Below, one piece after another: positions 4,046 to 51,998 of a DNA stretch of 53,965 nucleotides. The notes beneath the pieces are model-generated. The model made no database searches, had not been told where the DNA came from, and saw only the letters and a program-made list of their open reading frames with translations. The stretch covers positions 1 through 53,965 of IMG/VR virus record IMGVR_UViG_3300034093_000924. The stretch is one strand, 5' to 3'. The stretch comes from a virus. Its lineage: Duplodnaviria; Caudoviricetes. Each line of letters starts with the position of its first letter. Positions within the stretch are counted from its first letter, which is position 1. The position numbers and the translations under genes are program-made.

Positions 4046-4103
4046 GTCTGTCACTCAAATTGTGTTGCCCGTGCGACGGCGTTGGGGTTGCGCACAGAAA
4101 ATA

Positions 4104-34522: not shown

Positions 34523-36058
34523 TTAGTAATACGCCGCCTTACGGCGGAAGTAGATGGGGTCGTCTTTCTCGTCGGTGTTCAAACTGATGAACCCGCCCTG
34601 TCTGAACCGCAGCAACGCCTGGGAGGTCGTGTCCACGTAGTCATCGTTCTCGCCGTTGGGGAAGGACGCCACCTCCTCGATGACCTCCCTGGCCCAGCGT
34701 GTGTCTGGTGCCCAGACTGTACCTGAACTGAACAAGTCCGCAACCGCGTTTAGCCGCACAATTTTGTCGTTGCCCCTGGAGGGGTTGGTCTCTTGTACAG
34801 GTATGCCCATTCTGCGCAACTCTTGTATCAGTGGCGCTCCTGCGGCTTTCTTCTCCACGATGAAGGCATCTGGCTCCCACTCCTTGTAGTGCTTGAGTGC
34901 CGTGGCTTTCAACTCAGGAAACTGCATCCTGTCTTTAAACGCATCGAGCAGTATGACCTGCGCCGCGTCGTTCTCTTCCTCGTTGTAGAACACGCCCCAG
35001 GTTGTGCACGCCGAATAGTCGGCGCTGGTCTTGGCTTCAAACGCCGTGTCCCAGCTCTGGATGATGTACTCACAGGTGGGTGGGTCTTCCCCCTCCCAGA
35101 TGCGCCAGTTCTTTCTGGAGATGATGGCCGCGTTGTCGCTGGTGGGCTGCTGCATGTACTGGGCGTTCCAGTACTGGGGGTCAATCGAGGCTTTGGCCGA
35201 CTTCAACGCAGCCAGGGGCCACTGCTCTGGCCACAAGGACTTCTCGTCGTCCATGCCTTCGTTCAGTATGGCTGGCAACTCCACAATCTCCCATGCGGGT
35301 GCGTTGGGGTTCTTGGTCTGGTAGTCAATCAGCCTCCCGGTCAGGTCCAGTTTGCCCCAGCGGGTCATCACCACGATGATCCCACCCCCTGGCATCAAGC
35401 GCTGGAGGGGTCCAGTCTGGAACCAACTCCATGCCGTGTCAAACGCTAGACGACTGTTGGCTTTTACGTCTTGTTCCGAGTGAGGGTCATCCACAACAAA
35501 CAGATCGGCACCCCGACCAGCCAGAGCACCACCGACGCCAGCAGCGTAATACTGACCCCCAGCGCTAGTACCCCATTTTCCAGCAGCTTTCTGGTCATCG
35601 GCAACAAGTGTTTGTGGAAAAAGCTCACGGTAGTCCTCGCTGTCGATCAAATTGCGGACCTTGCGGCCAAAGTCTTCGGACAAAGACGCGGTGTGCGTCC
35701 CCATGATGATCTTCTTATTAGGGTATTTACCTAGAAAGTACGCTGGGAACAGGTAAGAACTGAATTCTGACTTGCCCATACGGGGTGCGATGTTGATGAT
35801 GACCCGGTTTTTGCGCCCTTCAATCACATCGGTGAAAATTTTGGCCAGTTTTCTGTGGTGTGGACCCACTTTGAACCCTGGATAGACCCGTTTGGCAAAC
35901 GAAATCATGTCCTGGCGTGCTGCTGCCACCCCGTAGCGCTTCTCGCGCTCCTCCAACATGTCAAACAACTCCATCTTCTCCTTGAGAGACAGTGTTGGGA
36001 GCGCCTGCTGGATAGCAGCGATCTCAGTTGGGGAGAGCGTCAGGTCGTTGAGCTTCAT
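34523..36058 (-). CDS. terL: Terminase large subunit
   Basis: Walker A-like APRMGKS, Walker B VVDDP, motif III MTRW, nuclease SWDTA and DDYVD. Confidence 0.93.
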   Translation of the reverse strand: MKLNDLTLSPTEIAAIQQALPTLSLKEKMELFDMLEEREKRYGVAAARQDMISFAKRVYPGFKVGPHHRKLAKIFTDVIEGRKNRVIINIAPRMGKSEFSSYLFPAYFLGKYPNKKIIMGTHTASLSEDFGRKVRNLIDSEDYRELFPQTLVADDQKAAGKWGTSAGGQYYAAGVGGALAGRGADLFVVDDPHSEQDVKANSRLAFDTAWSWFQTGPLQRLMPGGGIIVVMTRWGKLDLTGRLIDYQTKNPNAPAWEIVELPAILNEGMDDEKSLWPEQWPLAALKSAKASIDPQYWNAQYMQQPTSDNAAIISRKNWRIWEGEDPPTCEYIIQSWDTAFEAKTSADYSACTTWGVFYNEEENDAAQVILLDAFKDRMQFPELKATALKHYKEWEPDAFIVEKKAAGAPLIQELRRMGIPVQETNPSRGNDKIVRLNAVADLFSSGTVWAPDTRWAREVIEEVASFPNGENDDYVDTTSQALLRFRQGGFISLNTDEKDDPIYFRRKAAYY

Positions 36059-36647
36059 CAGCCGTGGGTGTGTGAGTACTAACTTCTATGTCCTCGATCA
36101 ATGCGGCGTCTGTGACGCCCATGAACCTGTTGAGCTTGTCTTTGATCTTCTGGTCGATCTCGTTGTCGGACAGGTCAGCCCGCTTAACCTCGATGCGTTC
36201 AGTAAACAGTCCAATCTCCGTGACCCGCCCGAGCATGTCCAGCGCCTTGAGCCTGATCCGAGCGTCGGGGTGGTTTGTTTCCTCCAGTATCTTGGCCACC
36301 GCCATGCCGCGCAGCTCTTTGGCTTGCTCGACAAACTCCCAGTCGTAGGCCGAGAGCATGGTGACCAGATGGCGCACAGCCTCTGGGGTTTTCAACTGGG
36401 TGAGTTGGTGTTTCGTTTCCGCAACAGGTTGTGCGGTGGCCAGCGCGGAGAACACTTTGCGTGCGGCGTTGGCTTGTGCTTGCTCGAGCGCCTTCTGGTC
36501 ACTGGCCACCCCCATGCTCTCCAGCCACTCGGTGGTCTTGACCTGGGCGTTCAGGATTTCTTCTGGGGATGAGGCATCCAACCCACGAACGGCTTTGCGC
36601 TCGTAGGAATCTACGGGGGGAGAGAAATCTATTAAGTGATCCAACAT
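36024..36647 (-). CDS. Probable terminase small subunit (start uncertain)
   Basis: Directly upstream of and overlapping terL; RLKALDMLGR...GLFTERIEV is a terS-like C-terminal motif. Confidence 0.6.
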   Translation of the reverse strand: MLDHLIDFSPPVDSYERKAVRGLDASSPEEILNAQVKTTEWLESMGVASDQKALEQAQANAARKVFSALATAQPVAETKHQLTQLKTPEAVRHLVTMLSAYDWEFVEQAKELRGMAVAKILEETNHPDARIRLKALDMLGRVTEIGLFTERIEVKRADLSDNEIDQKIKDKLNRFMGVTDAALIEDIEVSTHTPTADEAQRPDALPN

Positions 36648-36661
36648 ACGCGCATAAGCCC

Positions 36662-36690
36662 TTGAACCTGCGATTGGTCTAATGTACACT
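36662..36690 (+). promoter_or_regulatory. Candidate sigma70 promoter of the sRNA
   Basis: TTGAAC-17 nt-TACACT. Confidence 0.55.
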
Positions 36691-36696
36691 CAATCC

Positions 36697-36828
36697 CGGT
36701 AAGTGTGCAAGCAGTTGCCATTTGGCCTACGGCCAATTAGCAAAAATGCTCATTTGCTTCTCCTCCGGGGGTTTGTGATTATCCCCCCTCTTCATCCCCT
36801 GACTGGCAACGGTCAGGGGACTTTTTCG
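36697..36828 (+). ncRNA. Candidate trans-acting antisense sRNA (~130 nt)
   Basis: Bounded by a promoter and a terminator; hairpin, then unpaired seed CATTTGCTTCTCCTCC (36751-36766), then hairpin; seed is complementary to the early-gene RBS motif. Confidence 0.55.
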
Positions 36829-36832
36829 TTTT
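36795..36832 (+). terminator. Intrinsic terminator
   Basis: TCCCCTGACTG-GCAA-CGGTCAGGGGA-CTTTTTCGTTTT; the GNRA loop, U-G wobble and U-tract all fit the plus strand. Confidence 0.8.
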
Positions 36833-36927
36833 GGGGGGTGTTGGCTGGTAGTTCCCCTTTTCCACTTGCGTGTGCCTACACGGCTCCTCATTTAAACCAA
36901 GCCTCTCCATTGGTCACCAACATGGGT

Positions 36928-36958
36928 AGTATACCCCCCCTGTCAATCGTTGGACAAG
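36928..36958 (-). promoter_or_regulatory. Candidate late promoter overlapping a CTTGTCCAAC-NN-TTGACAG element
   Basis: Minus strand TTGTCC-18 nt-TATACT; the same 19-bp element occurs at 45258-45276 on the plus strand. Confidence 0.4.
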
Positions 36959-37215
36959 AGTTTTGTGGAATTTTTTAAAAAATTTATGGGGGTAGTAGAA
37001 AGGATTACAAAAGATTGATTTATGGCACAGAAACAGTGTTCAGTGCTGGGCGGCGTCAATCGTCCAATATGGGTTGGTGGGGGTACGGTGGGGTCTAAAT
37101 AACTCGTTTTTTGGCTGAAATGGGTACTCTCGACCCCATTTGAATCGGGGTCACCGCACAATAGAGACAGCGATGGGGATTGGCCCTGTCGCAAGCTAGT
37201 CTTAAAGGAAAAACC

Positions 37216-37629
37216 ATGTCAACGAAAACCACAGTTCACGCAGTTATCACCGCCGCTTTCGCATACGGCGAGGGCATCGCAACCCTCCGCACCGCCTTCA
37301 AGGGCAAAGCCCGTGATGCCGTCACCAAGGCGTTATTGCCCGAGGTGGCGAGCCATCCCAAGTACTTGGTGCCTCTGGTGGCCGGAGAGCGCAAAGCGGC
37401 GGGCACCAAGGTGCTCGACAAAACCCATGCGAATTACGAGGCGTGTCGCAAGGCGTTGCAACGCATCGTGAAGGAGGTGCTCGGAGAGCAAGGGTCGAGC
37501 AAAACCGAGGAGATGGAAATCCCCGAGGCGATTCTCAAGGCGGCGGCGCAACTGGCCAAGCTGTGCGCCGAGTACGAGGGTGCCCGCAAACTGGCGAGCA
37601 CCGCCGTGGCTCACGCCTTTGCCAAGTAA
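37216..37629 (+). CDS. First early gene, hypothetical (137 aa)
   Basis: AAGGA RBS before ATG 37216. Confidence 0.75.
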   Translation: MSTKTTVHAVITAAFAYGEGIATLRTAFKGKARDAVTKALLPEVASHPKYLVPLVAGERKAAGTKVLDKTHANYEACRKALQRIVKEVLGEQGSSKTEEMEIPEAILKAAAQLAKLCAEYEGARKLASTAVAHAFAK

Positions 37630-37630
37630 T

Positions 37631-37652
37631 CGGGGACACCTTGTCCCTGTTT
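37631..37652. repeat. Palindromic element copy 1 (GGGACA-CCT-TGTCCC)
   Basis: CGGGGACACCTTGTCCCTGTTT just after a stop codon. Confidence 0.85.
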
Positions 37653-37717
37653 CTTCCTGACGGCCTGCCCGAGAAGGTGCGCCGTTGTTTCTTTTCCTGT
37701 CCAACGGAGATTTACCC

Positions 37718-37858
37718 ATGACACAAAACCAATTCCTTGCGCTTTGCAACGAGCACCTCATCGACCCAGGCGTAGCCCTTGAAAACCCAGCCATCGTTGA
37801 AGCCCTTGAAAACCGAGACGATGAAGCCGTGATAGCGGCACTCACAAACGACTTTTAA
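37718..37858 (+). CDS. Small acidic hypothetical protein (46 aa)
   Basis: GGAG RBS; MTQNQFLALCNEHLIDP...TNDF; below the track length cutoff. Confidence 0.6.
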   Translation: MTQNQFLALCNEHLIDPGVALENPAIVEALENRDDEAVIAALTNDF

Positions 37859-37934
37859 ACAGGACACTCTCCCAGCCCATGCGTCTAGCGTGGGTTGTGG
37901 GGGCACTCTTGCCCGAACAACTAGGAGAATCATC

Positions 37935-38159
37935 ATGCGTTCAACTCACTTCCCCCTCTTGAAAGACCGTGGCACCCTCAACCTGCCCACAGGCCGCTGG
38001 CTCGTCCAAGACTACTTCCCCCAGTACCCCAAGCGCGACTACCACATCGTGTCCGTGCAGAACCGAGACACCCTGCTCTCAATGTCCTTCGCGTCAGGCG
38101 ATGCGTTCGAGTCCTGGCTTGAGGTCAACTGCCAGCCAGTGCAACTCCCCCTGCTGTGA
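37935..38159 (+). CDS. Hypothetical protein (74 aa)
   Basis: AGGAG RBS before ATG 37935. Confidence 0.65.
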   Translation: MRSTHFPLLKDRGTLNLPTGRWLVQDYFPQYPKRDYHIVSVQNRDTLLSMSFASGDAFESWLEVNCQPVQLPLL

Positions 38160-38162
38160 AAG

Positions 38163-38187
38163 AAACGGGGACAAACTGTCCCTGTTT
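38163..38187. repeat. Palindromic element copy 2 (GGGACA-AAC-TGTCCC)
   Basis: AAACGGGGACAAACTGTCCCTGTTT. Confidence 0.85.
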
Positions 38188-38221
38188 TTGTTAAATAGCA
38201 AAAAGTAATACTAAAAAGTTC

Positions 38222-38515
38222 GTATCACCTATTTAACAATATGGACACGAGCAAAGACACCTCCAAACCCGCATGGATACTGGCGTCAAGCCTTCCGGTG
38301 GCTATATATCTATATTTATATTTATATTTATATATAGGGGAGTGGGTATGTATGGGTTTGCCCCCGCTTCCACCTCTCTTCTTTTGTTTTTGTGGGCTTT
38401 GCTTTTTGCGAATACCAAAAACAACAGATACCTCGCCACCGGATGGCACAAACCCAGCACCCATGCGGCTTTCAGGGTGGCGAAGCTCGTGTCCAGATTG
38501 TTTAATAGGTGATAC
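38222..38515. repeat. 81-bp imperfect inverted repeat flanking an AT-rich core (candidate replication origin)
   Basis: Arms 38222-38302 and 38435-38515 align without gaps at 63/81 positions; TA-rich run at 38303-38336. Confidence 0.8.
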
Positions 38516-38592
38516 TTCCGGATACCAACTGACAAAACCATGATAAATAGAGTACACTTCAAGCCCCCCTCACACACGAAAGCACCCCAGCC

Positions 38593-39318
38593 ATGTTCGA
38601 AAACAAAAACACACGCCTTGTGCGATTACCCCCCCGCCTGTTGTTGGCCGAAGCCAACCGCCTGACCAAAGGAGTGCCGCTACTGCAAGGCACGCTATTT
38701 AACGCAGTAATGCAGAAAAAGAAACTGGCCCGCAGTCAACGAAACAAGAAGGCAGCACACGCCAGATTGTGGAAACCCATCATAAATACCGCTAAATACG
38801 AGCGCCGAAATGTGCGCGTGATGCACGATTACCAAGCCAAGTTACCCGAACCGACCCCTCGCCTTGAAGCGCTGGGCCTGTACTTGGTGGTGTTGGATAA
38901 GGTAATTGACCAACTCGAAGCGCACATTGCCTTGGGGGAATACACGCCAGCGCAGTATGCAAAGGAACACAACCTGCCCAATGTGGGGGTGCACTGGTCT
39001 GACTGGGTGAAGGAATCCCACAAGCGAAACCTGACCGCAGTCTTTGCCGCACTCCCCCGAACAGGGCGCAAGAACAAGCACCCCTTTGCCCGAACAGTAC
39101 CCAAGCCCATCTTTGAGAAGCAACACGCCCACCTTGTCAAACGCACGACAAGCGACCTGGACAACGAGCGCAAGCACTTGGCCGATGACCCGAACGACGG
39201 TAACTCATTCAAAAGAATAAAACAGATGATGCGTGTGCTGGCCGTGCTTAGAGACATGAAAGAACCCCAAGCCCTGCCCAACACATGGCACGGGCTGGCC
39301 CACCAGAAAGAGGAATGA
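38593..39318 (+). CDS. Hypothetical basic protein (241 aa)
   Basis: Long ORF (GVHWSDWV...LPNTWHGL) followed by palindrome copy 3. Confidence 0.75.
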   Translation: MFENKNTRLVRLPPRLLLAEANRLTKGVPLLQGTLFNAVMQKKKLARSQRNKKAAHARLWKPIINTAKYERRNVRVMHDYQAKLPEPTPRLEALGLYLVVLDKVIDQLEAHIALGEYTPAQYAKEHNLPNVGVHWSDWVKESHKRNLTAVFAALPRTGRKNKHPFARTVPKPIFEKQHAHLVKRTTSDLDNERKHLADDPNDGNSFKRIKQMMRVLAVLRDMKEPQALPNTWHGLAHQKEE

Positions 39319-39342: not shown

Positions 39343-39390
39343 ATCGGTCTGCCGCCTGCCGACTCAGGCGGTACTTTAAGGAGAAGTGAA

Positions 39391-39627
39391 ATGAAGAACT
39401 ATTGGTATTTGCGTATCGGCACCGACACACTTGAGGAAGCCCAGCGCTTTTCTAAAAAGAGTGATGCGATTAACGCATACAAATGTGTGGCCAAAGAGTT
39501 GGCGTTTTATGGGCAGGCCATTGACGCTTCGATTCACACGGCACCCACTCGTGCCGAGGTCGTGGAGTATCCCGACTATGTACTGTCGTTGAACGAAAAC
39601 GGCAGAGTTGTAACTGAGCAAGCATAA
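39391..39627 (+). CDS. Hypothetical protein (78 aa)
   Basis: AAGGAGAAGTGAA RBS. Confidence 0.75.
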   Translation: MKNYWYLRIGTDTLEEAQRFSKKSDAINAYKCVAKELAFYGQAIDASIHTAPTRAEVVEYPDYVLSLNENGRVVTEQA

Positions 39628-39638
39628 GGAGAAGTGAG

Positions 39639-39911
39639 ATGAAGATGCACAACATCTATTTTGTGGAAGTTACCGACACCTTCGGGGGCGAGGCCAACTA
39701 CTCGTGGGCCAAGCGGTTCAAGGTACACGCCAACACTGAGCGAGGGGCGATGCGTAAGGTAGCCCGCCACATGGGGTATGGCGGCGGGACATCCCGAGAC
39801 TGGGACACGGGCGACACAGCACGCTGGGTGTGGAAGCACGCTTGTGTCTGTGCGTTCGTGCAAGGGTACGAAGACCAAGCCGAGCACCTCATGCGTGTCG
39901 AGTCAATCTAA
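39639..39911 (+). CDS. Hypothetical protein (90 aa)
   Basis: AAGGAGAAGTGAG RBS; VTDTFGGEANYSW motif. Confidence 0.75.
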   Translation: MKMHNIYFVEVTDTFGGEANYSWAKRFKVHANTERGAMRKVARHMGYGGGTSRDWDTGDTARWVWKHACVCAFVQGYEDQAEHLMRVESI

Positions 39912-39928
39912 ACCAAAGGAGAAAGCAA

Positions 39929-40339
39929 ATGAAATACAACTCATTGATGGAAGCCCAGATGGGCGAGTGGCCGGACAGCTTGGTGCTGACTGACCGCCAG
40001 ATGTACGACGCCGTGAAGGTGGGCACACCTGATTGGATGGCGAAGCACAAGATAGAAGATTGGCGTATGTACGAAGCGCGGCACGAGTTTGGAGATTGGT
40101 TTGCGCCTATCTTTTATATGGATTGGAAACACCTACAGATTGAGCAGACACGCGCACAGTGGGCACGCAATGCGTTCTATTACCGAAGCGGTGACCCCGA
40201 TGGGTTCTTCTATGCGTGCGGCAAGCAAGACGATGGGACATACCGCCATGTGGGCTTTCGCTACGGCACAGAGGACTGCGAGTACGCATCTGGGTTTGAC
40301 GGCCTGACATACACACCAACCAAAGGAGAAAGCAAATGA
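39929..40339 (+). CDS. Hypothetical protein (136 aa)
   Basis: AAGGAGAAAGCAA RBS before ATG 39929. Confidence 0.7.
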   Translation: MKYNSLMEAQMGEWPDSLVLTDRQMYDAVKVGTPDWMAKHKIEDWRMYEARHEFGDWFAPIFYMDWKHLQIEQTRAQWARNAFYYRSGDPDGFFYACGKQDDGTYRHVGFRYGTEDCEYASGFDGLTYTPTKGESK

Positions 40340-40521
40340 ATCGATACACAGTACAGGTGCGCTTGTCGTACTACGCCGATGTGGAAGTCGAGGCAGATGA
40401 CGAACACAGTGCCAAACAGCAGGCAATACGCAAAGCACATTGGGCAATGGATAGGGGCGATGGGTGCTGGGGCGAGGAGCCCAGCGTAGTGGAGATAACC
40501 AACGAAGGAGAAGTGAAATGA
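40336..40521 (+). CDS. Hypothetical protein (61 aa)
   Basis: AAGGAGAAAGCAA RBS; VEVEADDEHSA. Confidence 0.7.
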   Translation: MNRYTVQVRLSYYADVEVEADDEHSAKQQAIRKAHWAMDRGDGCWGEEPSVVEITNEGEVK

Positions 40522-40733
40522 GTGCAATACAACTGGACTACGAGATGCTGCACAAAGCGGCGCAACAGATGGAGAAGGAAGGCGGGAGTTTCGCAGGGCA
40601 CATAGCACAAGCGTTCTATGTGGCAGACAGCACCAACATGTACAAGCTAGTCGAGGCGTTCGATGACCTGTTCGCCGAGTACTACCGCAAGTACCGCAGA
40701 GACCTGATGATTAACCAGGAGACAAGCAAATGA
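40518..40733 (+). CDS. Hypothetical protein (71 aa)
   Basis: AAGGAGAAGTGAA RBS; GGSFAGHIAQAFYVADSTN. Confidence 0.7.
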   Translation: MSAIQLDYEMLHKAAQQMEKEGGSFAGHIAQAFYVADSTNMYKLVEAFDDLFAEYYRKYRRDLMINQETSK

Positions 40734-40975
40734 AAACGAAAGAAGAAATGATCGCCTTCGCCGAGGGCTACCTGCGATGCTCTCTGTATGACGAACACAC
40801 AGGCGAGTCCATCAAGGGTGTTGATGAGTACGTGCATTGGGATATGTACGAGCTTCACTTTTTCGGACAAGACCACGCCGAGGAGGTTCCCGAGTATGCC
40901 CTCAAGATGGTGGTGTACTACTACAAAAGACTAGCGCTATCCGAGCCGATATTCACAACGATTGTTCAACAGTAA
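40730..40975 (+). CDS. Hypothetical protein (81 aa)
   Basis: AGGAGACAAGCAA RBS; ATGA overlap. Confidence 0.7.
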   Translation: MKTKEEMIAFAEGYLRCSLYDEHTGESIKGVDEYVHWDMYELHFFGQDHAEEVPEYALKMVVYYYKRLALSEPIFTTIVQQ

Positions 40976-40986
40976 GGAGAGAAGCA

Positions 40987-41169
40987 ATGAAAGACCAAAT
41001 GAACCAAGAAGAAGTCAACGAGACAGTGGTGCTTGAGTTACTCAATGTGATTGCGAGACTGCGCCATGTCAGCAACAACCTCGACAGCATATCCATGCGC
41101 CACGAGTGCACCGCCCAGCTTGAGGTGGTGCAAAAGAAACTGAACTATTTGATTGACTTAACCAAGTAA
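40987..41169 (+). CDS. Hypothetical protein (60 aa)
   Basis: AAGGAGAGAAGCA RBS. Confidence 0.65.
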   Translation: MKDQMNQEEVNETVVLELLNVIARLRHVSNNLDSISMRHECTAQLEVVQKKLNYLIDLTK

Positions 41170-41182
41170 AAGGAGAGAAGCA

Positions 41183-41410
41183 ATGAGAGAACCACAACAA
41201 CACTTCTATGCGTCCAGCGTATCGCAGTGGGCAACGACCAACGACAAGCGCGACCTGCGCCAGTTGTTGAGACTCATGGACAAGGACGGGTACGCATACA
41301 ACCTGTTCCTCGTGCCGTTGGATCACACCGCCACCTATGAGATCAGGATGTACCAACCCCAAGTCGAGGGCACACAGTGGCTTGGATTCTTTAACCCAAA
41401 GGAGAAGTGA
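41183..41410 (+). CDS. Hypothetical protein (75 aa)
   Basis: AAGGAGAGAAGCA RBS. Confidence 0.7.
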   Translation: MREPQQHFYASSVSQWATTNDKRDLRQLLRLMDKDGYAYNLFLVPLDHTATYEIRMYQPQVEGTQWLGFFNPKEK

Positions 41411-41411
41411 G

Positions 41412-41672
41412 ATGAAACATCAATGGAACACAGGCCGTCAGTATGACGAGCACGGGCAACGCATGGTGGCCGAGGTAGACAGGGAGAACCTGATGGACCT
41501 CCCGCGCATTTACTTCAGCGACCTGTCACGCCACATCAATGGCTTTGTGCCGCTGGGTATGTGGGCACAGACAGGGGACAAGTACGCCATCGAGACGCTG
41601 GTCATGACCAACTACGACTTTGGCAACTACTCACCGAGCAACATAACTCTTGAATGGAAGGAAACAAAATGA
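41412..41672 (+). CDS. Hypothetical protein (86 aa)
   Basis: AAGGAGAAGTGAG RBS; WNTGRQYDEHGQRM. Confidence 0.7.
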   Translation: MKHQWNTGRQYDEHGQRMVAEVDRENLMDLPRIYFSDLSRHINGFVPLGMWAQTGDKYAIETLVMTNYDFGNYSPSNITLEWKETK

Positions 41673-41983
41673 AGATCAAAGTAAGTGAATTAACAGGAGC
41701 CGCCCTTGACTGGGCGGTGGGGTACATCATGGGCGAGAAGCTACGCATACTTGACCGACAGATTGTTTGGCCCGAAGACTACTCACCATCGACAGACTGG
41801 GCACAAGGTGGGCCGATCATTGAGCGTGAGGGGATTGCCCTCTATCTGTACGGCGGCTCCGAATGGAATGCCCATGTTGGCGGTCGTGAGTCGGTCGGCC
41901 CCACACCATTAATCGCCGCTATGCGGTGCTATGTGGCAAGCAAGCTGGGTGATGAAGTTGAAATACCAGAGGAGTTGAAATGA
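41669..41983 (+). CDS. NinX/DUF2591-like protein
   Basis: ELTGAALDWAV...PSTDWAQGGPIIERE...GPTPLIAAMRCYVASKLG. Confidence 0.75.
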   Translation: MKIKVSELTGAALDWAVGYIMGEKLRILDRQIVWPEDYSPSTDWAQGGPIIEREGIALYLYGGSEWNAHVGGRESVGPTPLIAAMRCYVASKLGDEVEIPEELK

Positions 41984-42183
41984 ACGGACTAGACGCACAC
42001 CACGATGCGCTACTCGACAGGCACCTAGACCAGCTCGACCGAGAGGACGCACGCTCAGCACTGGCGGACGCGGAACGCACTCGCTTGCTTGACTTGGTTA
42101 TCCAGGTGCAAGGCGCACTGATGCGAGACGACAAGGAGATTGCTATGTGTATCTTGAATGAAATCGAAAAGGAACTGGAATAA
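41980..42183 (+). CDS. Hypothetical protein (67 aa)
   Basis: AGGAG RBS; ATGA overlap. Confidence 0.65.
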   Translation: MNGLDAHHDALLDRHLDQLDREDARSALADAERTRLLDLVIQVQGALMRDDKEIAMCILNEIEKELE

Positions 42184-42205
42184 ACGGGGACAACCTGTCC
42201 CTGTT
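42182..42205. repeat. Palindromic element copy 4 (GGGACA-ACC-TGTCCC)
   Basis: AAACGGGGACAACCTGTCCCTGTT. Confidence 0.85.
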
Positions 42206-42270
42206 ATGGGTTAGCGGTGTGCCCTCTCACACCGCGCTTGTAAGTAGTAACAAAAAACTGGAGAAGCAAG

Positions 42271-43608
42271 ATGAAGATATTGTTTAACAGCACATTCATG
42301 CCAGCCGCCGACATCGTGTACCACCACCGCGCATGGTTCAGGCGTGAGACACGCAAGTACAAACTGCACCCCGTTGTTGAGGCGGCACTTGATGTGTGCC
42401 GTCCTGATGACTGGCATCAGTTGTTGCTTGAGTGGCCGCACATATCCGAGGGTGACCCCGCACGGCTGGCATACACGAGGGACGAGCGTGCAGGTGAGGC
42501 CGACAGACAGACTGTCACCACCATCGGCAAGTATCTGACGCGCCACTTCAGCGATATGCCCGACCACAAGGTGCGTGACTTGGCCGCGCTGTATGGCTCC
42601 AATGGCGAGTGCAGGTTCGTGCACACCATGGCTGAGATGCTGCACCACTTGAAGCGTGGGCCGTCATCGTGTATGACTGGCGACAGGGACTACCGCTGTG
42701 ACGATGGCGTGTTGCGCCATGCCTATGAGGTGTATGACCCGAGCCTTGGCTGGCACATGGCTGTGCGCTTGGAGTTCGGCAAGACTGTGGGCCGTGCGCT
42801 GTGCCACGGCAAGACCTATGTGCGCTCTTACAAGTACAACCCACACGGCAGTGGCTCACCCACTGACGAGACGCTTGAGGCGTGGCTAGAAACACAGGGG
42901 TACGACAAGGAGTGCACATGGGATGGGCTGAAGATCATGCACTACATCACACAAGGCGGCGACACACTGGCCCCCTACCTCGACGGCGACGACAAGTACG
43001 CTACCAAGAAGGGCGGCTACTTGGTCATCACGGACGACCGTGATGCCGAGTACCAGTGCGACAACACAGGCGGCACGGCCAGCGACAACAACGGGTCAAA
43101 CTGTGAGGACTGTGGCGACCGCATGAGCGATGGTGATGGGTACTGGGTTGGCGCAAGCGAGGAGACCCAGGTGTGCGACAGTTGTTTCAACCACAACTAC
43201 ACATATGCGTACAGCAGGCGCGGGCATCAGGCACACATCAACAACGACTATGTGGTGTATGTCGAGTCGCAAGACGCGCACTATGACGAGGACTATCTCG
43301 ACAGCAACAACATTGTGACGCTGGAGAATGGTGAGTACGAGCACACCGACAACGCTGTGGAGATTGACAACGAGTGGTTCCACATCGAGGACGAGAACAT
43401 TGTCTGTGACCACAACGGCGACTACCAACTGCTCAACAACTGTGTGGGACTAGAGAGCGGCGAGTACGCCCTGACCGATGAGGCGTGGCTGTGCGCCGCG
43501 TCTGCCGATTGGTACTTGACCGATGATGTCGAGCCTGTGACTGTGGACGGCGAGAACTACCACCCCGACCATGCACCCGAGCAAGCAACTGAAGAAGAAG
43601 GAGAATGA
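42271..43608 (+). CDS. Hypothetical protein with SCM/GRAL/PYLD motifs, a CxxC pair and an acidic repeat tail (445 aa)
   Basis: GPSSCM, GRALC..YVRSY, APYLD, CEDC...CDSC; D/E-rich C-terminal part. Confidence 0.8.
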   Translation: MKILFNSTFMPAADIVYHHRAWFRRETRKYKLHPVVEAALDVCRPDDWHQLLLEWPHISEGDPARLAYTRDERAGEADRQTVTTIGKYLTRHFSDMPDHKVRDLAALYGSNGECRFVHTMAEMLHHLKRGPSSCMTGDRDYRCDDGVLRHAYEVYDPSLGWHMAVRLEFGKTVGRALCHGKTYVRSYKYNPHGSGSPTDETLEAWLETQGYDKECTWDGLKIMHYITQGGDTLAPYLDGDDKYATKKGGYLVITDDRDAEYQCDNTGGTASDNNGSNCEDCGDRMSDGDGYWVGASEETQVCDSCFNHNYTYAYSRRGHQAHINNDYVVYVESQDAHYDEDYLDSNNIVTLENGEYEHTDNAVEIDNEWFHIEDENIVCDHNGDYQLLNNCVGLESGEYALTDEAWLCAASADWYLTDDVEPVTVDGENYHPDHAPEQATEEEGE

Positions 43609-44702
43609 GTATGAACAAGAAATCAATTCTGTATAAGACCCTGGTCCGTGCGTTGTCGCTCAAGCGTCCGCATGGTGGTGCGACTGTTGCTGGCTTCACG
43701 CAATGGCTCGTGGACCGCTTGCCCGATCTGGCCGAGGTGTTCACCGATGCCGCTGGGAATGTGCACATTGATATGCGTAGCAGTGACGACCACCGCACGC
43801 TGTTCGTGGCCCATGTGGATACGGTGCACAAGGACGAGGGGGCCAACAAGTTCCGCAAGACCCAGTACAAGTGGTATGCCGAGGACTCACAGCTTGGCGC
43901 GGATGACGGTGCGGGCTGTGCCATGCTCATGCACCTGATGCACAGCGGTGTGCCTGGGTATTACATCTTCACGCAAGGCGAGGAGCGTGGGGGTATCGGT
44001 GCCAAGCACATAGCCAACACATACGCAGACCTGCTGGGCCAGTTCCAGCGTGCCATTGCGTTCGACCGCAGGGGTGTGGATAGCGTCATCACGCACCAGG
44101 GCTGGGGTCGTTGCTGTTCGGATGGGTTTGGCCAAGCCCTGGCTGATGCGCTCAATGTCGATGAGCGCTTGATGTATATGCCTGACGACACTGGGGTATA
44201 CACCGACACTGCCGAGTTCACCGACATCATCCCCGAGTGCACCAACATCAGCGTGGGCTATGACTTCGAGCACAGCGCCAAGGAGGAGCTGGATGTGTAT
44301 CACTTCGACCTGTTGGCCCAGCAAGCCGTGCTCATTGACTGGGATGGGCTCCCCTCCGAGCGTGACCCCACGGTGCCTGACCTCAAGGACATCCACGACA
44401 CAGGTTGGAGCAAGGGGTGGTGGACCAAGTACGACAAGGATGTGGCCAAGTACGACTACGCCGACATGACAGCGGACTGCTTCGAGGAGGCCATCGAGGA
44501 GGCGCGGGCTGGGTACCCTGAGTACCTGCTGGACTTGATCGCCGAGGCCGCGTACCCCGAGGACATTGACTTGGCCTTGCGCTTCCTCGACAAGCGGCGT
44601 GTGACCAAGGACTTGGTGGACGAGATAGCGCGGCAAGCCCAGGCGTACAACGCAGACACGGCCCTGCTCAATGCGTTCGATGCCCTGTATGCCGAGGTTT
44701 GA
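43605..44702 (+). CDS. M20/M28-family zinc peptidase-like protein
   Basis: AHVDTVH, LGADDGAG, GEERG, FDRRG and EHS metal-ligand motifs. Confidence 0.8.
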   Translation: MSMNKKSILYKTLVRALSLKRPHGGATVAGFTQWLVDRLPDLAEVFTDAAGNVHIDMRSSDDHRTLFVAHVDTVHKDEGANKFRKTQYKWYAEDSQLGADDGAGCAMLMHLMHSGVPGYYIFTQGEERGGIGAKHIANTYADLLGQFQRAIAFDRRGVDSVITHQGWGRCCSDGFGQALADALNVDERLMYMPDDTGVYTDTAEFTDIIPECTNISVGYDFEHSAKEELDVYHFDLLAQQAVLIDWDGLPSERDPTVPDLKDIHDTGWSKGWWTKYDKDVAKYDYADMTADCFEEAIEEARAGYPEYLLDLIAEAAYPEDIDLALRFLDKRRVTKDLVDEIARQAQAYNADTALLNAFDALYAEV

Positions 44703-44735
44703 CCGGTGTCAACTTCTTTTTTAAAAGGAACATTC

Positions 44736-44879
44736 ATGTTTGATGAACTTTATTGCGTGTACTGCGCTACCCCCAAGGGGGACAGCTACTCTTGTTGCCA
44801 AGAGAACCATTTCGTGCCGTTCGGTGATCTTTATCCCGAAGATCAGGCGGCGTTACTTGAGGAGATGAAAGATGACTGA
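44736..44879 (+). CDS. Small Cys-rich protein (47 aa)
   Basis: AAGGA RBS; CVYC...CCQENHF. Confidence 0.6.
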   Translation: MFDELYCVYCATPKGDSYSCCQENHFVPFGDLYPEDQAALLEEMKDD

Positions 44880-45159
44880 CAAGACCTACAACGGCTGGAC
44901 CAACTACGCCACATGGCGTGTGAACCTGGAGATATTCGATGACGCGGACAAAGCCGAACTGTTCGATCTATCCTTGCCTGTTGAACAACTGCGCCATGTG
45001 CTGCAAGACTATGTGGAGGAACACATCTACGAGGCAGGCGGGGGCGACGAAGGCAACATCGCCGTTGACTACGCGCTGGCGTTCCTGTCCGATGTGAATT
45101 GGTACGAGATCGCCAAGCACATGATTGACGATGCACAACTGGAGAAGTCTGATGAATAA
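44872..45159 (+). CDS. Hypothetical acidic protein (95 aa)
   Basis: YNGWTNYATWRVNL...VNWYEIA, a pattern common in phage early proteins. Confidence 0.75.
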   Translation: MTDKTYNGWTNYATWRVNLEIFDDADKAELFDLSLPVEQLRHVLQDYVEEHIYEAGGGDEGNIAVDYALAFLSDVNWYEIAKHMIDDAQLEKSDE

Positions 45160-45247
45160 CTACACCATGTCCGAGCGCATACAGCGCGTTGTTGTGCTGG
45201 TCGCACTGATTGTGCTGGCCTTGGATTTATTTATATGGAGGGCGTAG
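45152..45247 (+). CDS. Small membrane peptide (31 aa)
   Basis: GGAGAAG RBS; VVVLVALIVLALDLFIW. Confidence 0.5.
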   Translation: MNNYTMSERIQRVVVLVALIVLALDLFIWRA

Positions 45248-45269
45248 CAACCACTAACTTGTCCAACAC

Positions 45270-45298
45270 TTGACAGAAGTTTATTTGCGAGGTATATT
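45270..45298 (+). promoter_or_regulatory. Sigma70 promoter
   Basis: TTGACA-17 nt-TATATT, intergenic, ~20 nt before the 45320 start. Confidence 0.75.
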
Positions 45299-45319
45299 TT
45301 CAAAAACGGAGAAGCACAA

Positions 45320-45538
45320 ATGCACTACCACACACCGCCCTACGACACGGGCAAAGTAAAGATCGGCCTGATGTACAACGGCAGGCCCAGCACCATGACG
45401 CGAGACGAAGAGCTTATCCAGGCGGCACTGCTTGGCATACGCCCTGATTGGTGCTACTTCATCGAGAGCGCACTGATCTATGTCGCTGTCGTATTCACCC
45501 TTTTATCCGCCATCTTTTTTCTACTAGCCAAGGACTAA
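45320..45538 (+). CDS. Small protein with C-terminal TM helix (72 aa)
   Basis: GGAGAAGC RBS; PYDTGKVKIG; hydrophobic tail. Confidence 0.7.
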   Translation: MHYHTPPYDTGKVKIGLMYNGRPSTMTRDEELIQAALLGIRPDWCYFIESALIYVAVVFTLLSAIFFLLAKD

Positions 45539-45540
45539 AA

Positions 45541-46188
45541 ATGCCCGACTTACAAACCGCACTCACCACTGCAATCAAGAGCCAAGTTTTATCAACCACC
45601 ATCAACGAATGGGAAGAAGAGGAGCAGCAGACCATGCAAGCACAAACACAACCACAGGCACAAGCACCAATCATGCAAACACAAACCAAAATCAACGGCA
45701 ACAGCAAACTTACCCTCACGGGCAACCTATCCAAAGACATCTTCGTCTACATCAGAGACAACCCCGGCTGCTTACGCGCCGATATACGAAAGGTGTTTAT
45801 CGAGGCGGGTTTTAAAGAGGCTTCAATAGGCTCCCTCGTCTCGCAGATGGTGCGCAACAAAATAGTGAACATCAACGAGGTGGGCAACCTCGAAGCGAAG
45901 CGCGTTTACTACAAGCCGCTGGTCAGCGGAGCCAAGAGAAAAGAGATGAGCATAAAGCGGGGCGTAGCACGCGACAAGCCCGCAAAGCCCAAGGCGCAGG
46001 GCATCGCCGCGCTGGCCCCCGAGCCTACCCAGGACACAGCCAAGGGCCAGGAAGCCATCGACAAGGTGCTTGCCCTACCTGTGCGTGAAGCGCGGGCTGT
46101 GTACGATGCGCTGTGCCTGTTGCGGGACTTGAATGTGGGCGAGGCGAGACACTTGTACACCGAGTTGCAGAAACTGTTCGGAGGTTGA
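45541..46188 (+). CDS. Putative winged-helix DNA-binding protein (215 aa)
   Basis: IFVYIRDNPGCLRADI...SIGSLVSQMVRNKIV resembles a winged HTH. Confidence 0.6.
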   Translation: MPDLQTALTTAIKSQVLSTTINEWEEEEQQTMQAQTQPQAQAPIMQTQTKINGNSKLTLTGNLSKDIFVYIRDNPGCLRADIRKVFIEAGFKEASIGSLVSQMVRNKIVNINEVGNLEAKRVYYKPLVSGAKRKEMSIKRGVARDKPAKPKAQGIAALAPEPTQDTAKGQEAIDKVLALPVREARAVYDALCLLRDLNVGEARHLYTELQKLFGG

Positions 46189-46311
46189 ATGGACACAGTT
46201 CTGGCCACGATTCTCTTGGGGTTCATAGGTGTGGTAGTTGCTGGCCTTGTGCTGGTAGCACTGATGCGCTTGTGGTTCTGGATGGATGAGCAGGAAAGGA
46301 ATGACAGATGA
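46189..46311 (+). CDS. Small membrane peptide (40 aa)
   Basis: GGAGG RBS; single TM helix. Confidence 0.55.
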   Translation: MDTVLATILLGFIGVVVAGLVLVALMRLWFWMDEQERNDR

Positions 46312-46338
46312 ACGGCAAACACAAACAGGAGAAACGCA

Positions 46339-46569
46339 ATGGCTAAGTTACCTTACACATACACCATTTGCCCCGACCAAGAACCGCCAAAGCAATTCAC
46401 GGCGAGTTGTGTCGATATGGGGCGCTTGCTTAAGAACTCCCCTGATGGGGACTTGACGATTAACCAGAAGCGTACCGCCACATGGGATGTGTGGTCTGGT
46501 AACCACATGGGCGCAATTGAAGAAGCGCTACACGCCATAAGCGAACAGCACAAAAAGGAAAAGAAATGA
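46339..46569 (+). CDS. Hypothetical protein (76 aa)
   Basis: AGGAG RBS. Confidence 0.7.
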   Translation: MAKLPYTYTICPDQEPPKQFTASCVDMGRLLKNSPDGDLTINQKRTATWDVWSGNHMGAIEEALHAISEQHKKEKK

Positions 46570-46835
46570 ACGAAGAAGACGAAGCATTCGAGCAGTTGGC
46601 CTTGAAGCAGGGCCAATGGGAACACACAAGTGGATGGCGTAAGAAACAAATCATGGACACACAAGCATTCCCAAACCCACACAGGACTGACATGACGGGC
46701 ATGACCTTGCGGGACTACTTTGCGGCAAAGGCTATGCAAGGAATGATGCACGATGTATCGCAACCCGTTGGAGAAGTAATCGCTGAATGGGCCTATCAAG
46801 TTGCAGACGCAATGCTGAAAGCGAGGGAAGCATGA
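46566..46835 (+). CDS. Hypothetical protein with GMTLRDYFAAKAMQG motif
   Basis: Widespread phage motif plus AYQVADAMLKAR. Confidence 0.75.
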   Translation: MNEEDEAFEQLALKQGQWEHTSGWRKKQIMDTQAFPNPHRTDMTGMTLRDYFAAKAMQGMMHDVSQPVGEVIAEWAYQVADAMLKAREA

Positions 46836-47047
46836 CCGCCATGACCAAGGAAGAGTTCAAAGCCCGTTGGGAATCCAATGACAACGGCGGTGGTATCAGT
46901 TACGACGACATTGCAAACTGCGCGGTGGCGTGGGGCATATCGCGTACACCAAAGACACGCCGCATTGACGTTATCCGCTACCAAGTGCTGGTGGCGGCAG
47001 GCACAGTGGATGCCGAAGAATTCACACCTGACGAGGAGCAAGCATGA
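46832..47047 (+). CDS. Hypothetical protein (71 aa)
   Basis: ATGA overlaps at both ends. Confidence 0.65.
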   Translation: MTAMTKEEFKARWESNDNGGGISYDDIANCAVAWGISRTPKTRRIDVIRYQVLVAAGTVDAEEFTPDEEQA

Positions 47048-47301
47048 AACTCTCCGCACAGAAAAAGTTTGAATTGGCTTTGCACGATATGCCGATGTGC
47101 GCCGTCTGCAACAAGCGTGTTGAGCGCATGGAATCCGAATACGACATCAACACATACCAAAAGCGGTTTCGTGTTTACTGCCACGGACAAACGGAAGAGG
47201 CGTTTCTCAGCGACATGGACATTTGGAACGCAGACAGTATTCGCATGGGTCAGGCATTCATTGACAAGCTACCTCAACCACAACTGGAGATGAAGCGATG
47301 A
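47044..47301 (+). CDS. Hypothetical protein with CxxC...CH motif (85 aa)
   Basis: PMCAVCNK...VYCHG; GAGGAG RBS. Confidence 0.7.
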   Translation: MKLSAQKKFELALHDMPMCAVCNKRVERMESEYDINTYQKRFRVYCHGQTEEAFLSDMDIWNADSIRMGQAFIDKLPQPQLEMKR

Positions 47302-47516
47302 CCTACAACGCAGAGCAGATTACCTACATGTTGGCTGATGCCATAGACAAAGACCGTGAGTACAAGTCTTGGCACGTAAGTACAAAGCACCTGATGACCC
47401 TTGTTGAAATGGCTGTTGCTGATGAGCGTGAGGCGTGTGCAAAGGTGTGTGATGAATATGGTGATGAATATGGCGAATTTATTGCCGATGTAATCAGAGC
47501 AAGGGGACAAGCATGA
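47298..47516 (+). CDS. Hypothetical protein with EREACAKVCD motif
   Basis: Common phage motif; ATGA overlaps. Confidence 0.7.
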   Translation: MTYNAEQITYMLADAIDKDREYKSWHVSTKHLMTLVEMAVADEREACAKVCDEYGDEYGEFIADVIRARGQA

Positions 47517-48088
47517 CTGACAAAGAAGCAATGGCAATGGCGCTTGATGCGTTGGAAAACAGCGTTGATTTGGTTGTTGAAGATGCGTACAACGCAGAGC
47601 AACTTTATGGCAACTATCCAACACGACAAGGCAAAGTTGGCGGCTTGAAGATATTGGCTGACCAACACAAAGAAGCCATCGCCGCCCTCAAAGAACGCTT
47701 GGCACAAGAGAAAGCACTTCAAGCCTTGCACAATGAAAATGAACGGCTGGGCTTGTATGAAGATGCTTATGCACAGCCAGAGCAAGAGCCTGTGGCGTGG
47801 GGTGTATTTGAAGGCAACCTGCACGATATGTTTTTTACGCAGGAAGAAGCGCAGGAGATGGCAAGTTTAAAAGGAAGTCATGCAGAAGTGAGACCCCTCT
47901 ACACAACCCCACCCCAGCGCACAGAGCAAGAGCCTACCCCTGAGATTAAGTACAAAATGATTGTGATTGATGACCTGCATCCACAGGGCATACCGGTCGA
48001 GCAGTGGGTAAACCCACCACAGCGCACAGAGCCTTTGATCGGCTGCGTTAATCACGACTGCGCCAAATGCAAGGAGCGCAACACATGA
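47513..48088 (+). CDS. Mosaic hypothetical protein with QEPVAW / PLYTTPPQR modules (191 aa)
   Basis: Typical modular early protein; PPQRTE occurs twice. Confidence 0.7.
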   Translation: MTDKEAMAMALDALENSVDLVVEDAYNAEQLYGNYPTRQGKVGGLKILADQHKEAIAALKERLAQEKALQALHNENERLGLYEDAYAQPEQEPVAWGVFEGNLHDMFFTQEEAQEMASLKGSHAEVRPLYTTPPQRTEQEPTPEIKYKMIVIDDLHPQGIPVEQWVNPPQRTEPLIGCVNHDCAKCKERNT

Positions 48089-48303
48089 AACCAATAGCAT
48101 GGTACGACCCATCTAATGGCGTAGTCAGTACAGATAGAAACAGCCCTTTGTTTACACCGCTTGGTCAGGTGTGGCCTTTGTATCCAAAGGGTGAGTGGGT
48201 TGGACTGACTGACAGGGAGATGATGGACGCCATCCACATGGACGACAGCCCGATGGAGATGGGGCGAAAGACTGAAGCCAAACTCAAGGAGAAGAACACA
48301 TGA
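48085..48303 (+). CDS. Hypothetical protein (72 aa)
   Basis: AAGGAG RBS; EWVGLTD...EAKLKEKN motif. Confidence 0.7.
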   Translation: MKPIAWYDPSNGVVSTDRNSPLFTPLGQVWPLYPKGEWVGLTDREMMDAIHMDDSPMEMGRKTEAKLKEKNT

Positions 48304-49055
48304 TATTTCTAATCAAGAAGCGCAAGTTGGTGGTGGACATGTTCACCTGTCGGCAGATGGTGTTTGATGCGGCAAAGCCCAAGGCGGCGGCACACTTCTA
48401 CCCGCAGTGGTGGAAGGACTTAAAGCTGGAGATACCCATCCAGAACAGCCTGTTCCCCACTGCCACCATGAAGCGGTGCATGGGTGTGGTTGATCACTAC
48501 AAGCACGGCATCGTTCAACCGCTGTGGTCTGACTACACGCTGGAGGTGGGCGCTATTGGCGACCCGCACTGGGCTGGGCAATTCTCTGACAGCACAAGCA
48601 CCATGAGCCAGCACCCCGCCGTATTGCGTGGGTTATTCGCGCCCGAGTCGCACTACTGCCACATGAAGTTCGACAACCCTTGGGTAGCAAGCTGTAAAGA
48701 GGATGTGTACTTCAAGTGGGAGCAACCAACGTGGAGTATGCCAAGCCTGTCTAGCTACGTCCTGTTACCGGGCACGACTGAGTTCAAGTACCAGTATTCC
48801 ATGAATACAAACCTGCTGTTCGTGAAGGGGGCAACCACGATCACACACCGCTTGAAGTTTGGCCAGCCGCTGGTACACCTAACGGCGTTGACAGAGCGCG
48901 ATATTGATCTGCGCCACCACATGGTTACAAGGGAAGAGTACAACAAGTACCTGCAAGGCGAGAAGCTGAGTAACCTCAACCGATACCGCGAGTACCGCAG
49001 GGTGCGCGAGTCTGAAGAAAGCAAATGCCCGTTTGGGTTTGGGAGAAAGACATGA
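48300..49055 (+). CDS. Hypothetical protein (251 aa), possible dUTPase-like beta fold
   Basis: PQWWK...TMKRC...KFDNPW...LPG...GQPLVHL pattern; the fold assignment is inference. Confidence 0.7.
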   Translation: MIFLIKKRKLVVDMFTCRQMVFDAAKPKAAAHFYPQWWKDLKLEIPIQNSLFPTATMKRCMGVVDHYKHGIVQPLWSDYTLEVGAIGDPHWAGQFSDSTSTMSQHPAVLRGLFAPESHYCHMKFDNPWVASCKEDVYFKWEQPTWSMPSLSSYVLLPGTTEFKYQYSMNTNLLFVKGATTITHRLKFGQPLVHLTALTERDIDLRHHMVTREEYNKYLQGEKLSNLNRYREYRRVRESEESKCPFGFGRKT

Positions 49056-49458: not shown

Positions 49459-49459
49459 C

Positions 49460-51989: not shown

Positions 51990-51998
51990 GGAGAAGCA

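Follow-up and report, generated by a model that had tools for sequence, protein, structure and literature searches.

The RNA gene in the divergent gap upstream of terS

The window analysed here is a whole virus record of 53,965 bp (IMG/VR record IMGVR_UViG_3300034093_000924; G+C 54%), and our subject is a predicted small RNA (sRNA) gene on its plus strand. Leftward genes on the minus strand run from position 36647 and comprise terS (36024-36647), terL (34523-36058) and then portal-sized and structural open reading frames (ORFs). Genes on the plus strand, with a DNA polymerase and an exonuclease among them, begin at about 37216. The sRNA unit sits in the divergent gap, directly upstream of terS. 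The assignment of terS as the small terminase gene was made by position and by relatives; its ATG at 36647 is the start kept in relatives, and alignments with TerS homologues begin at residue 1 of this start. As terS starts at 36647, the -35 box of the sRNA promoter lies inside the terS 5′ untranslated region. A PHROGs search gave no family match for terS or for four of the nine early proteins scanned.

Direct reading of the plus strand places a -35-like box, TTGAAC, at 36662-36667 and, after a spacer of 17 nt, the -10 box TACACT (36685-36690), which is contained in the near-palindrome AATGTACACT (36681-36690). The promoter agrees with the sigma-70 consensus at 8 of 12 positions, and it was not listed by the promoter scanner because the cut-off of the latter is 9 of 12. 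The predicted sRNA of about 135 nt (36698-36832, plus strand) was delimited by its fold and by a covariance model described below, with the 5′ end placed according to the -10 box; the median length of the sRNA in relatives is 93 nt. The plus-strand fold of 36698-36832 has three hairpins and a free energy of -55.4 kcal/mol (z -5.07), and none of 200 shuffled sequences was as stable. The covariance model matched the window at 36693-36827 with 51.5 bits (E 1.1e-9).

The first hairpin, SL1 (36698-36758), has GGUAAGUG and CAUUUGCU paired in its basal stem, above which lies an inner helix, GCAA/UUGC; its apical insert, UUGGCC-UAC-GGCCAA, is limited to some relatives. SL1 runs into the conserved motif GCUUCUCC(UCC) (36756-36766), our proposed anti-Shine-Dalgarno seed, of which 36759-36766 is single-stranded. 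SL2 (GGGGG...CCCCC, 36767-36788) was obtained from the fold, and its sequence differs among relatives. SL3 (36795-36820) is an intrinsic terminator stem-loop with 11 pairs, seven of them G-C, and a loop of 4 nt. It is followed directly by CTTTTTCGTTTT, and the U-tract CUUUUUCGUUUU (36821-36832) was seen both by direct reading and in the terminator scan.

The initial annotation of this locus had described a self-contained plus-strand unit, and the parts that it named are present: the TTGAAC-17-TACACT promoter at 36662-36690, the AGCA..TTGGCC-TAC-GGCCAA..TGCT hairpin inside SL1, the GGGGG/CCCCC hairpin, and the GCAA-loop terminator with its 11-pair stem and a U-tract reaching 36832. Two of its statements need amending, of which the one on a shared consensus is taken up further below. 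The 16-mer at 36751-36766 had been given as unpaired, yet only its second half (UCUCCUCC, 36759-36766) is free, while the first half (CAUUUGCU, 36751-36758) is paired in SL1 as the 3′ arm of the basal stem, which is kept by covariation in relatives (helix 1). The plus strand had also been described as devoid of a credible ORF. No credible one was seen, although an ORF of 91 codons with a GTG start (36703-36978) does get listed; we discounted it because the length of this stretch varies in relatives, where the distance from the -10 box to the motif ranges from 33 to 77 nt.

Conservation and structure of the RNA family

Searches of IMG/VR with TerL and TerS yielded 157 loci, and the 420 nt upstream of terS, taken from 142 of them, gave 119 distinct sequences. 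Simple pattern matching found the same plus-strand layout in all but one of these: the -10 box, which is nearly palindromic, precedes a first hairpin whose length varies, and after the motif come a second hairpin, unrelated in sequence between relatives, and a G+C-rich hairpin with a T-run behind it. The exception (L142) was later found by the covariance model. The motif reads GCUUCUCC in 101 of the 119 sequences, and the others carry one- or two-base pyrimidine variants of it (CUUUCUCC in 8, CUCUCUCC in 6 and CUUCUCUCC in 4). From these sequences 116 units were extracted and folded singly. The -10 hexamer is TAYACT in every one of them (TACACT in 78, TATACT in 38), a TTG lies 16-18 nt upstream of the -10 box in 111, and a run of at least five T follows the last hairpin in the 116 units. 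This T-tract after the terminator hairpin is seen on the plus strand only.

The covariance model, run on both strands of 762 kb of sequence, returned one match per source, on the expected strand, in 100 of 100 sources. The promoter-seed-terminator unit that had been predicted upstream of terS in related phages was thus found. Matches were also obtained in 13 of 20 further sources; in the seven missed, the locus has no more than about 720 nt ahead of the TerL match or opens with that match. We also performed a context-blind scan of IMG/VR with a pattern made of the -10 core and the motif only, which gave 119 stretches among the matches listed. Among these listed matches, 114 loci were new and 109 of them adjoin a divergent terS homologue, and the remainder comprised two loci too short in sequence and three chance matches without hairpins. 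Hence, as far as the matches listed go, terS is adjacent in 109 of 109 genuine loci with room for it. The family counts at least 200 distinct contigs in IMG/VR, and TerS identity across the phages sharing the motif spans 44-99%.

A blastn search with positions 36000-37600 found no match in the collection of isolated phages. Over the 4 kb around terL, the covariance model gave no credible match in 023Pt_psg01, DSL-LC04 or Pelagibacter phage HTVC027P; its two best scores, 13.9 and 13.8 bits (E of about 0.07), both came from 023Pt_psg01. No cultured member of the family was thus found among the phages searched. The TerL of the window shares about 50% identity with that of the nearest cultured phages. 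Three short contigs (L161, L162 and L163) have been placed in metagenome bins with the labels Phycisphaerales, Burkholderiaceae and Limnohabitans, and L161 and L163 carry the sRNA; the bin labels are a weak hint as to the host. Neither 36000-38700 nor 36600-36950 gave an above-threshold match to any Rfam 15 family, and the matches at E up to 10 in the latter segment did not include c4. The best alignment was to ar15/AbcR (RF02345, clan CL00108), with 21.1 bits against a gathering threshold of 40 (E 0.034-0.26). We rejected membership in that family, as the score is below threshold and the likeness is one of layout only. No description of this RNA was found in the literature listings, abstracts and selected passages covered.

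The three-hairpin shape recurs in each of the 116 units. In 114 of them the plus-strand fold is more stable than that of the complement, the means being -40.1 vs. -31.6 kcal/mol. A MAFFT alignment of 103 of the 116 units (13 near-duplicates left out) gave only four consensus pairs in RNAalifold; it was replaced by the covariance model because hairpins of unrelated sequence had been misaligned. Thirty-three of the 116 units, with a structure projected from single-sequence folds, served to build this model, with which the units were then re-aligned. An alignment fitted to a model favours pairing, but the values observed exceed those of slid and shuffled controls by a wide margin. Standard pairs fill 87.1% of the cells, compared with 41-50% when partners were slid by one to three columns. 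Changes on both sides occur at 25 of the 30 pairs, divided among helices 1 and 2 of SL1 (6 of 10 and 4 of 4), helix 3 in SL2 (4 of 4) and helix 4 in SL3 (11 of 12). The covariation score amounts to 0.474 vs. 0.175 for shuffled alignments, of which none in 500 reached it, and 0.04-0.10 for the slid controls.

The pair types further tell which strand is folded. Among 2584 cells, 402 are G-U or U-G and 53 are A-C or C-A, a ratio of 7.6, whereas the slid controls give ratios of only 1.3-2.9, so that the asymmetry is more than base composition. As an A-C pair corresponds to G-U on the other strand, this excess indicates that the folded molecule is the plus-strand RNA. The motif columns from U (column 91) to C (column 97) are identical in 94-95 of 95 distinct rows, and the G, C and first-U columns in 84, 85 and 90 of them. 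The last five motif bases, YCUCC, have a mean unpaired probability of 0.94, which exceeds 0.8 in 108 of the 116 units. A minus-strand promoter candidate, TTGCAC-18-TACATT, shares the palindromic -10 box; we did not rely on it, as its "-35" falls in the covarying helix 2 of SL1. Comparative support for a self-contained plus-strand sRNA unit is strong, given the conserved promoter, covarying stems, terminator and motif. At the level of sequence, the unit shows the features of the base-pairing sRNA class, namely an own promoter, a terminator on the same strand, covarying structure and a conserved single-stranded seed. We consider it very probable that the RNA gene at 36698-36832 is real and represents a new sRNA family.

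The surroundings of the unit are mosaic. Contigs with a TerL 96% identical to that of the window have a TerS only 63% identical, and in these the block 36618-36844 retains a DNA identity of 93-96%. The sRNA unit is bounded by recombination breakpoints, of which the right-hand one falls just beyond the U-tract. As TerS has been exchanged while the block stays alike, the unit survives the swap of its neighbour gene. Directly after the terminator lies an insert of about 100 nt (36838-36940), present only in the closest relatives and in L112; RNA-library contigs of one relative join 36837 to 36941 without it. The 84-nt core of the insert (36839-36922) begins with TGTTGG and ends with CCAACA, thus having inverted termini, and its flanks differ between contigs. 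The insert may be a small mobile or mosaic module. Next comes the palindrome TGTCAATCGTTGGACA (36941-36956; pattern TGTCNANNGTTNGACA) and, within about 20 nt to its right, an AT-rich TTTTTTAAAAAATTT box. The TGTCNANNGTTNGACA palindrome is present once, beside the sRNA terminator, in 184 of 277 loci, and the block may be read as back-to-back TTGACA-like -35 boxes or as the operator of an early promoter. Farther to the right, a simple repeat, (TATATT)n/(TA)n, occupies 38303-38336 in a gap of the plus-strand module and is followed by a promoter-like CTGACA-18-TACACT at 38529-38558; the region 38303-38558 could be an origin or a second promoter region.

Early ribosome-binding sites and predicted pairing

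The gene calls used here, and their labels "early" and "late", are heuristic; they comprise 40 early and 43 late starts. Eight called ORFs inside the long ORF 2-4054 were dropped and a start at 4054 was added, and the starts of terS and terL were set to 36647, supported by homologues, and to 36058, respectively. On these calls, early start regions read AAGGAGAAGUGAAAUG, AAGGAGAAAGCAAAUG, AAGGAGAGAAGCAAUG or AAGGAGAAGCAAUG, and late ones UAAGGAGU... or UAAGGA.... Plus-strand genes from 39391 to 52001 mostly have a ribosome-binding site (RBS) of the form AAGGAGA(A)G with an A-rich spacer, and minus-strand structural genes have UAAGGAGU or UAAGGA; the first plus-strand genes, from 37216 to 39318, are without the extended motif. 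The pattern AGGAGA-N3-9-ATG occurs 17 times on the plus strand of the window vs. three times on the minus strand, where one of the matches is the sRNA segment itself. In ten long relatives it occurs 140 times on the majority strand vs. 18 times on the other. Similarly, an A follows GGAG in 200 of 280 early-side RBS of relatives vs. 23 of 83 late-side ones. The early genes have a class-specific RBS, and this RBS is complementary to the sRNA motif.

The reverse complement of the 16-mer had been proposed as a consensus from Shine-Dalgarno (SD) sequence through spacer to ATG in some 15 genes. No such consensus was found: the 16-mer GGAGGAGAAGCAAATG, at up to three mismatches, matches only itself. 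What holds is the pairing capacity, as 16 of the 40 early starts, compared with three of the 43 late ones, offer at least nine contiguous pairs to 36751-36768 when G-U is allowed. The shorter GGAGAAGYRNNATG has five copies, all on the plus strand, vs. 0.02 expected. The statement that two G-U wobbles keep the pairing with GGAGAAGUG targets was correct.

In RNAduplex calculations, positions 36746-36768 were paired with the -25 to +6 regions of the 40 early and 43 late starts. Early start regions outranked late ones, as had been predicted, with medians of -16.6 vs. -12.5 kcal/mol (p = 0.003), and early ones make up 17 of the top 20 by score. The two groups were not separated by a generic 16S tail used as a control (p = 0.15), and none of 300 shuffled seeds gave as large an early/late difference. 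The predicted targets all lie on the plus strand. The start AGGAGAAGUGAAAUG (39379-39393) offers 12 contiguous pairs with G-U allowed, and the pairing scan found others of the same type at 39627-39641, 40506-40520 and 41400-41414. The start AGGAGAAGCAAUG (51989-52001) has 11 contiguous Watson-Crick pairs, with a similar one at 42260-42273. The target AGGAGAAAGCAAAUG (39917-39931) has one extra A relative to the seed and a second copy at 40324-40338, each of them pairing with -22.7 kcal/mol.

A change in the seed is accompanied by a change in the RBS in one lineage. Two long records with the seed CUUUCUCC have 12 AGGAGAAAG vs. one AGGAGAAG RBS, whereas five records and the window, with the seed CUUCUCC, have 15 AGGAGAAAG vs. 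35 AGGAGAAG RBS (Fisher p = 6e-5, for phages that are not phylogenetically independent).

Proposed function and its alternatives

The best single reading of these data is that occlusion of the early-gene RBS class is the main job of the sRNA. We assign to the whole statement, from the own promoter to the function that we infer, a probability of about 0.45. Transcription would start at the sigma-70-type promoter inside the terS leader and end at the intrinsic terminator. The linker between hairpins 1 and 2 presents the near-invariant (G)CUUCUCC(U) single-stranded, and this motif would nucleate pairing with the extended SD AAGGAGAAG(Y)(R)A, which marks plus-strand replication and early-middle genes and is absent from late genes. 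From there the duplex could grow through the 3′ arm of hairpin 1 as far as the start codon and keep the 30S subunit from binding at roughly 10-16 genes. Such repression would act in trans and set the timing of early expression. The sRNA is probably a cis-antisense partner of the terS leader as well, its gene lying in what is likely the late leader on the other strand; that it is antisense to this leader, as suggested in the initial annotation, is plausible.

The original proposal that the sRNA silences early genes through a shared RBS seed is consistent with the stronger early duplexes and with the conserved class-specific RBS, and in part with covariation, which appeared for CUUUCUCC only. 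A role as an immunity or carrier-state repressor, also suggested at that time, found no support, and no lysogeny genes were seen among the 10 proteins scanned, which are a part of the ORFs.

Several observations weigh against early-gene occlusion as the main job. The RNA-library matches (16 runs, shares 0.05-0.21) are assembled contigs without strand, ends or expression, and those from four runs cover the sRNA region in pieces. For the labels early and late the only backing is gene content, the plus strand coding for DNA polymerase and exonuclease and the minus strand for terminase. A sequence complementary to an RBS always reads as an RBS on the opposite strand, so that conservation of the motif could stem from the late leader. 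Indeed, a start codon is retained after the mirror-image RBS in 92 of 119 relatives (ATG in 74, GTG in 12 and TTG in 6). In the early-side RBS of relatives, GGAGAAA is commoner than GGAGAAG (73 vs. 32 of 280), so that the perfectly paired core is often only AAGGAGAA, which is little beyond an ordinary SD match. The covariation of CUUUCUCC rests on two related phages and may be one evolutionary event, and the seeds CUCUCUCC and CUUCUCUCC, in three long relatives, showed no matching shift of the early RBS, AGGAGAAGC being kept. The expectation that the seed covaries with the early RBS of its genome was thus borne out for CUUUCUCC and failed for the other two variants; the seed/RBS signal is also weak in the early region of about 3 kb per locus. 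Finally, the promoter looks constitutive, so that the early-gene repressor would already be made when infection begins. This requires a further assumption, for instance that the sRNA builds up as genome copies increase.

The chief rival, which we regard as unlikely but well worth weighing, is that the sRNA is mainly a cis-antisense regulator of the leader of the late (terS) operon, a role that is compatible with one in trans. Full-length pairing with the leftward leader crossing the gene would alter its processing, stability or termination. The SD-like AAGGAGAAGCAA(A)UG, through which ribosomes load onto the leader, may be masked by the sRNA as well; in the reverse direction, the leader would mop up the sRNA and leftward transcription would shut off its promoter. 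Leftward transcripts probably do cross the sRNA gene, because the terminator hairpin has no T-tract in that direction. This reading accounts for the strict linkage to terS in the 109 genuine context-blind loci with room among the matches listed, which holds even where terS was exchanged (TerL 96%, TerS 63% and the block 36618-36844 93-96% identical), and for the start codons retained behind the mirror-image RBS. Transfer RNA (tRNA) genes pointing to terS point the same way: they end 3 nt (L083), 1 nt (L112) and about 200 nt (L111) from the sRNA 3′ end. On the other hand, any cis-antisense pair is complementary whatever its sequence, which leaves the near-invariant motif unexplained. Of the 119 relatives, 27 lack the start codon, and the peptides show no conservation; the -10 box of the sole leftward match to a promoter consensus (36957-36928) falls in the window-specific insert 36838-36940. 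That selection acts on the plus-strand fold is also indicated by the scarcity of A-C pairs. As to the tRNA genes themselves, they occupy part of the stretch from the sRNA terminator to the early promoter block, at L083:3647-3816 (Pro, His), L112:3782-3857 (Asn) and L111:3571-3644 (Met); the window itself has no tRNA gene.

An sRNA that acts in trans on host mRNAs, its anti-SD motif occluding conserved host RBS and its likeness to the early RBS being a side effect, would explain why the motif is invariant across phages whose TerS proteins are 44-99% identical, as expected of a slowly evolving target. The architecture is likewise that of bacterial anti-SD sRNAs, with ar15/AbcR as the best, below-threshold Rfam alignment (21.1 bits). 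Yet hints as to the host are limited to the bin labels of three short contigs, and the seed separates early from late genes while the 16S tail does not, so that the extra AAG(Y)(R)A complementarity is specific to phage early genes; we consider host targets quite improbable. Still less can be said for a promoter-proximal attenuator, with transcription from 36697 normally halting at 36832 and a phage or host factor driving read-through into the plus-strand genes from 37180, as in the short terminated lambdoid leader RNAs. Promoter, terminator and downstream genes do share one strand, and in most relatives some 10-25 nt separate the terminator from the conserved element that comes next. However, a separate, conserved promoter-like block (TGTCNANNGTTNGACA and the TTTTATAAAATTT box, 184 of 277 loci) stands right after the terminator, so that the downstream genes need no read-through. 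The tRNA genes inserted between the two lie on the opposite strand, and the invariant single-stranded pyrimidine motif would be unexplained; we hold this reading to be very improbable. Hardly any weight is left for the view that there is no sRNA and that the conserved segment simply provides a leader peptide or type I toxin-like minigene on the minus strand with its RBS, the hairpins belonging to the late leader. The window does have a perfect SD-spacer-ATG on the minus strand, followed by the minigene MSIFANWP (36727-36753), and a stable fold is predicted for the minus strand, too (-50.9 kcal/mol, z -4.41). Nevertheless, the minigene is not conserved: the relatives without a start codon are spread over several clades, and the peptides of the others range from 2 to 51 aa without a common sequence or frame. 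We therefore rejected a leader peptide or type I toxin-antitoxin system, there being no conserved small ORF opposite the RNA. The T-tract on the plus strand only, the tolerance of G-U with depletion of A-C relative to slid controls, and the TTG and TAYACT boxes kept at correct spacing on the plus strand stand against a minus-strand element as well.

Occlusion of early RBS by the sRNA has partial parallels in known systems. According to passages on P1/P7 c4, this phage-encoded structured small RNA pairs through exposed stretches around the RBS of phage mRNA and blocks translation (PMC12197685). The likeness to c4, and to the related P4 CI RNA, lies in a structured phage RNA with short exposed stretches that pair with an RBS. 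c4 is processed from the transcript that it controls and acts on one operon, icd-ant. By contrast, the sRNA described here is framed by a promoter and a terminator of its own, on the strand opposite the terminase operon, and 10-16 start regions could be within its reach. Like it, P22 Sar and lambda OOP are short RNAs with an own promoter and an intrinsic terminator, opposite phage mRNA, and Sar covers an RBS. As they act on the one transcript that they overlap, they need no conserved seed, whereas here a near-invariant single-stranded motif is kept in more than 200 diverged contigs and matches many RBS 2.5-15 kb away. The class of lambdoid late leaders does not apply, since the sRNA unit points away from terS and terL.

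Closest in layout are AbcR/ar15 and the RsaE-type C-rich sRNAs, with a 5′ hairpin, a single-stranded pyrimidine-rich anti-SD stretch, a second hairpin and a terminator, and with one seed for many RBS targets, as is predicted here. They differ in being chromosomal and in targeting host transport or metabolism mRNAs. In phage T4, the RegB endoribonuclease and the RegA repressor recognise a temporal class of mRNA at the RBS (GGAG for RegB) and switch it off, and late genes escape. RegA and RegB are proteins, whereas the recogniser proposed here would be an RNA, and the discriminator would be the SD extension, AGGAGA(A)G in early genes vs. UAAGGAGU or AAGGA in late ones.

A wider form of the proposal, which we put forward tentatively and with more doubt than occlusion as such, is that the RBS "address" AAGGAGA(A)G with a CAA-type spacer marks a temporal class, and that one sRNA switches off the whole replication and early-middle regulon, as an RNA-only counterpart of T4 RegA/RegB. 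If so, the onset of late transcription would be mechanically coupled to the level of the sRNA, whose gene lies inside the leader of the late operon, and the seed and the RBS of the regulon would have to co-evolve, as the CUUUCUCC lineage hints. To our knowledge, known phage-encoded regulatory RNAs act on one or a few transcripts. If the proposal is true, one sRNA would control a whole class of the phage's own genes via a shared RBS extension. A temporal programme would then be built in a novel manner, with class information carried by the flanks of the RBS. Whatever its function, the sRNA belongs to a compact, very well conserved and hitherto unannotated RNA family, which marks the early/late boundary in an abundant group of uncultured aquatic phages.

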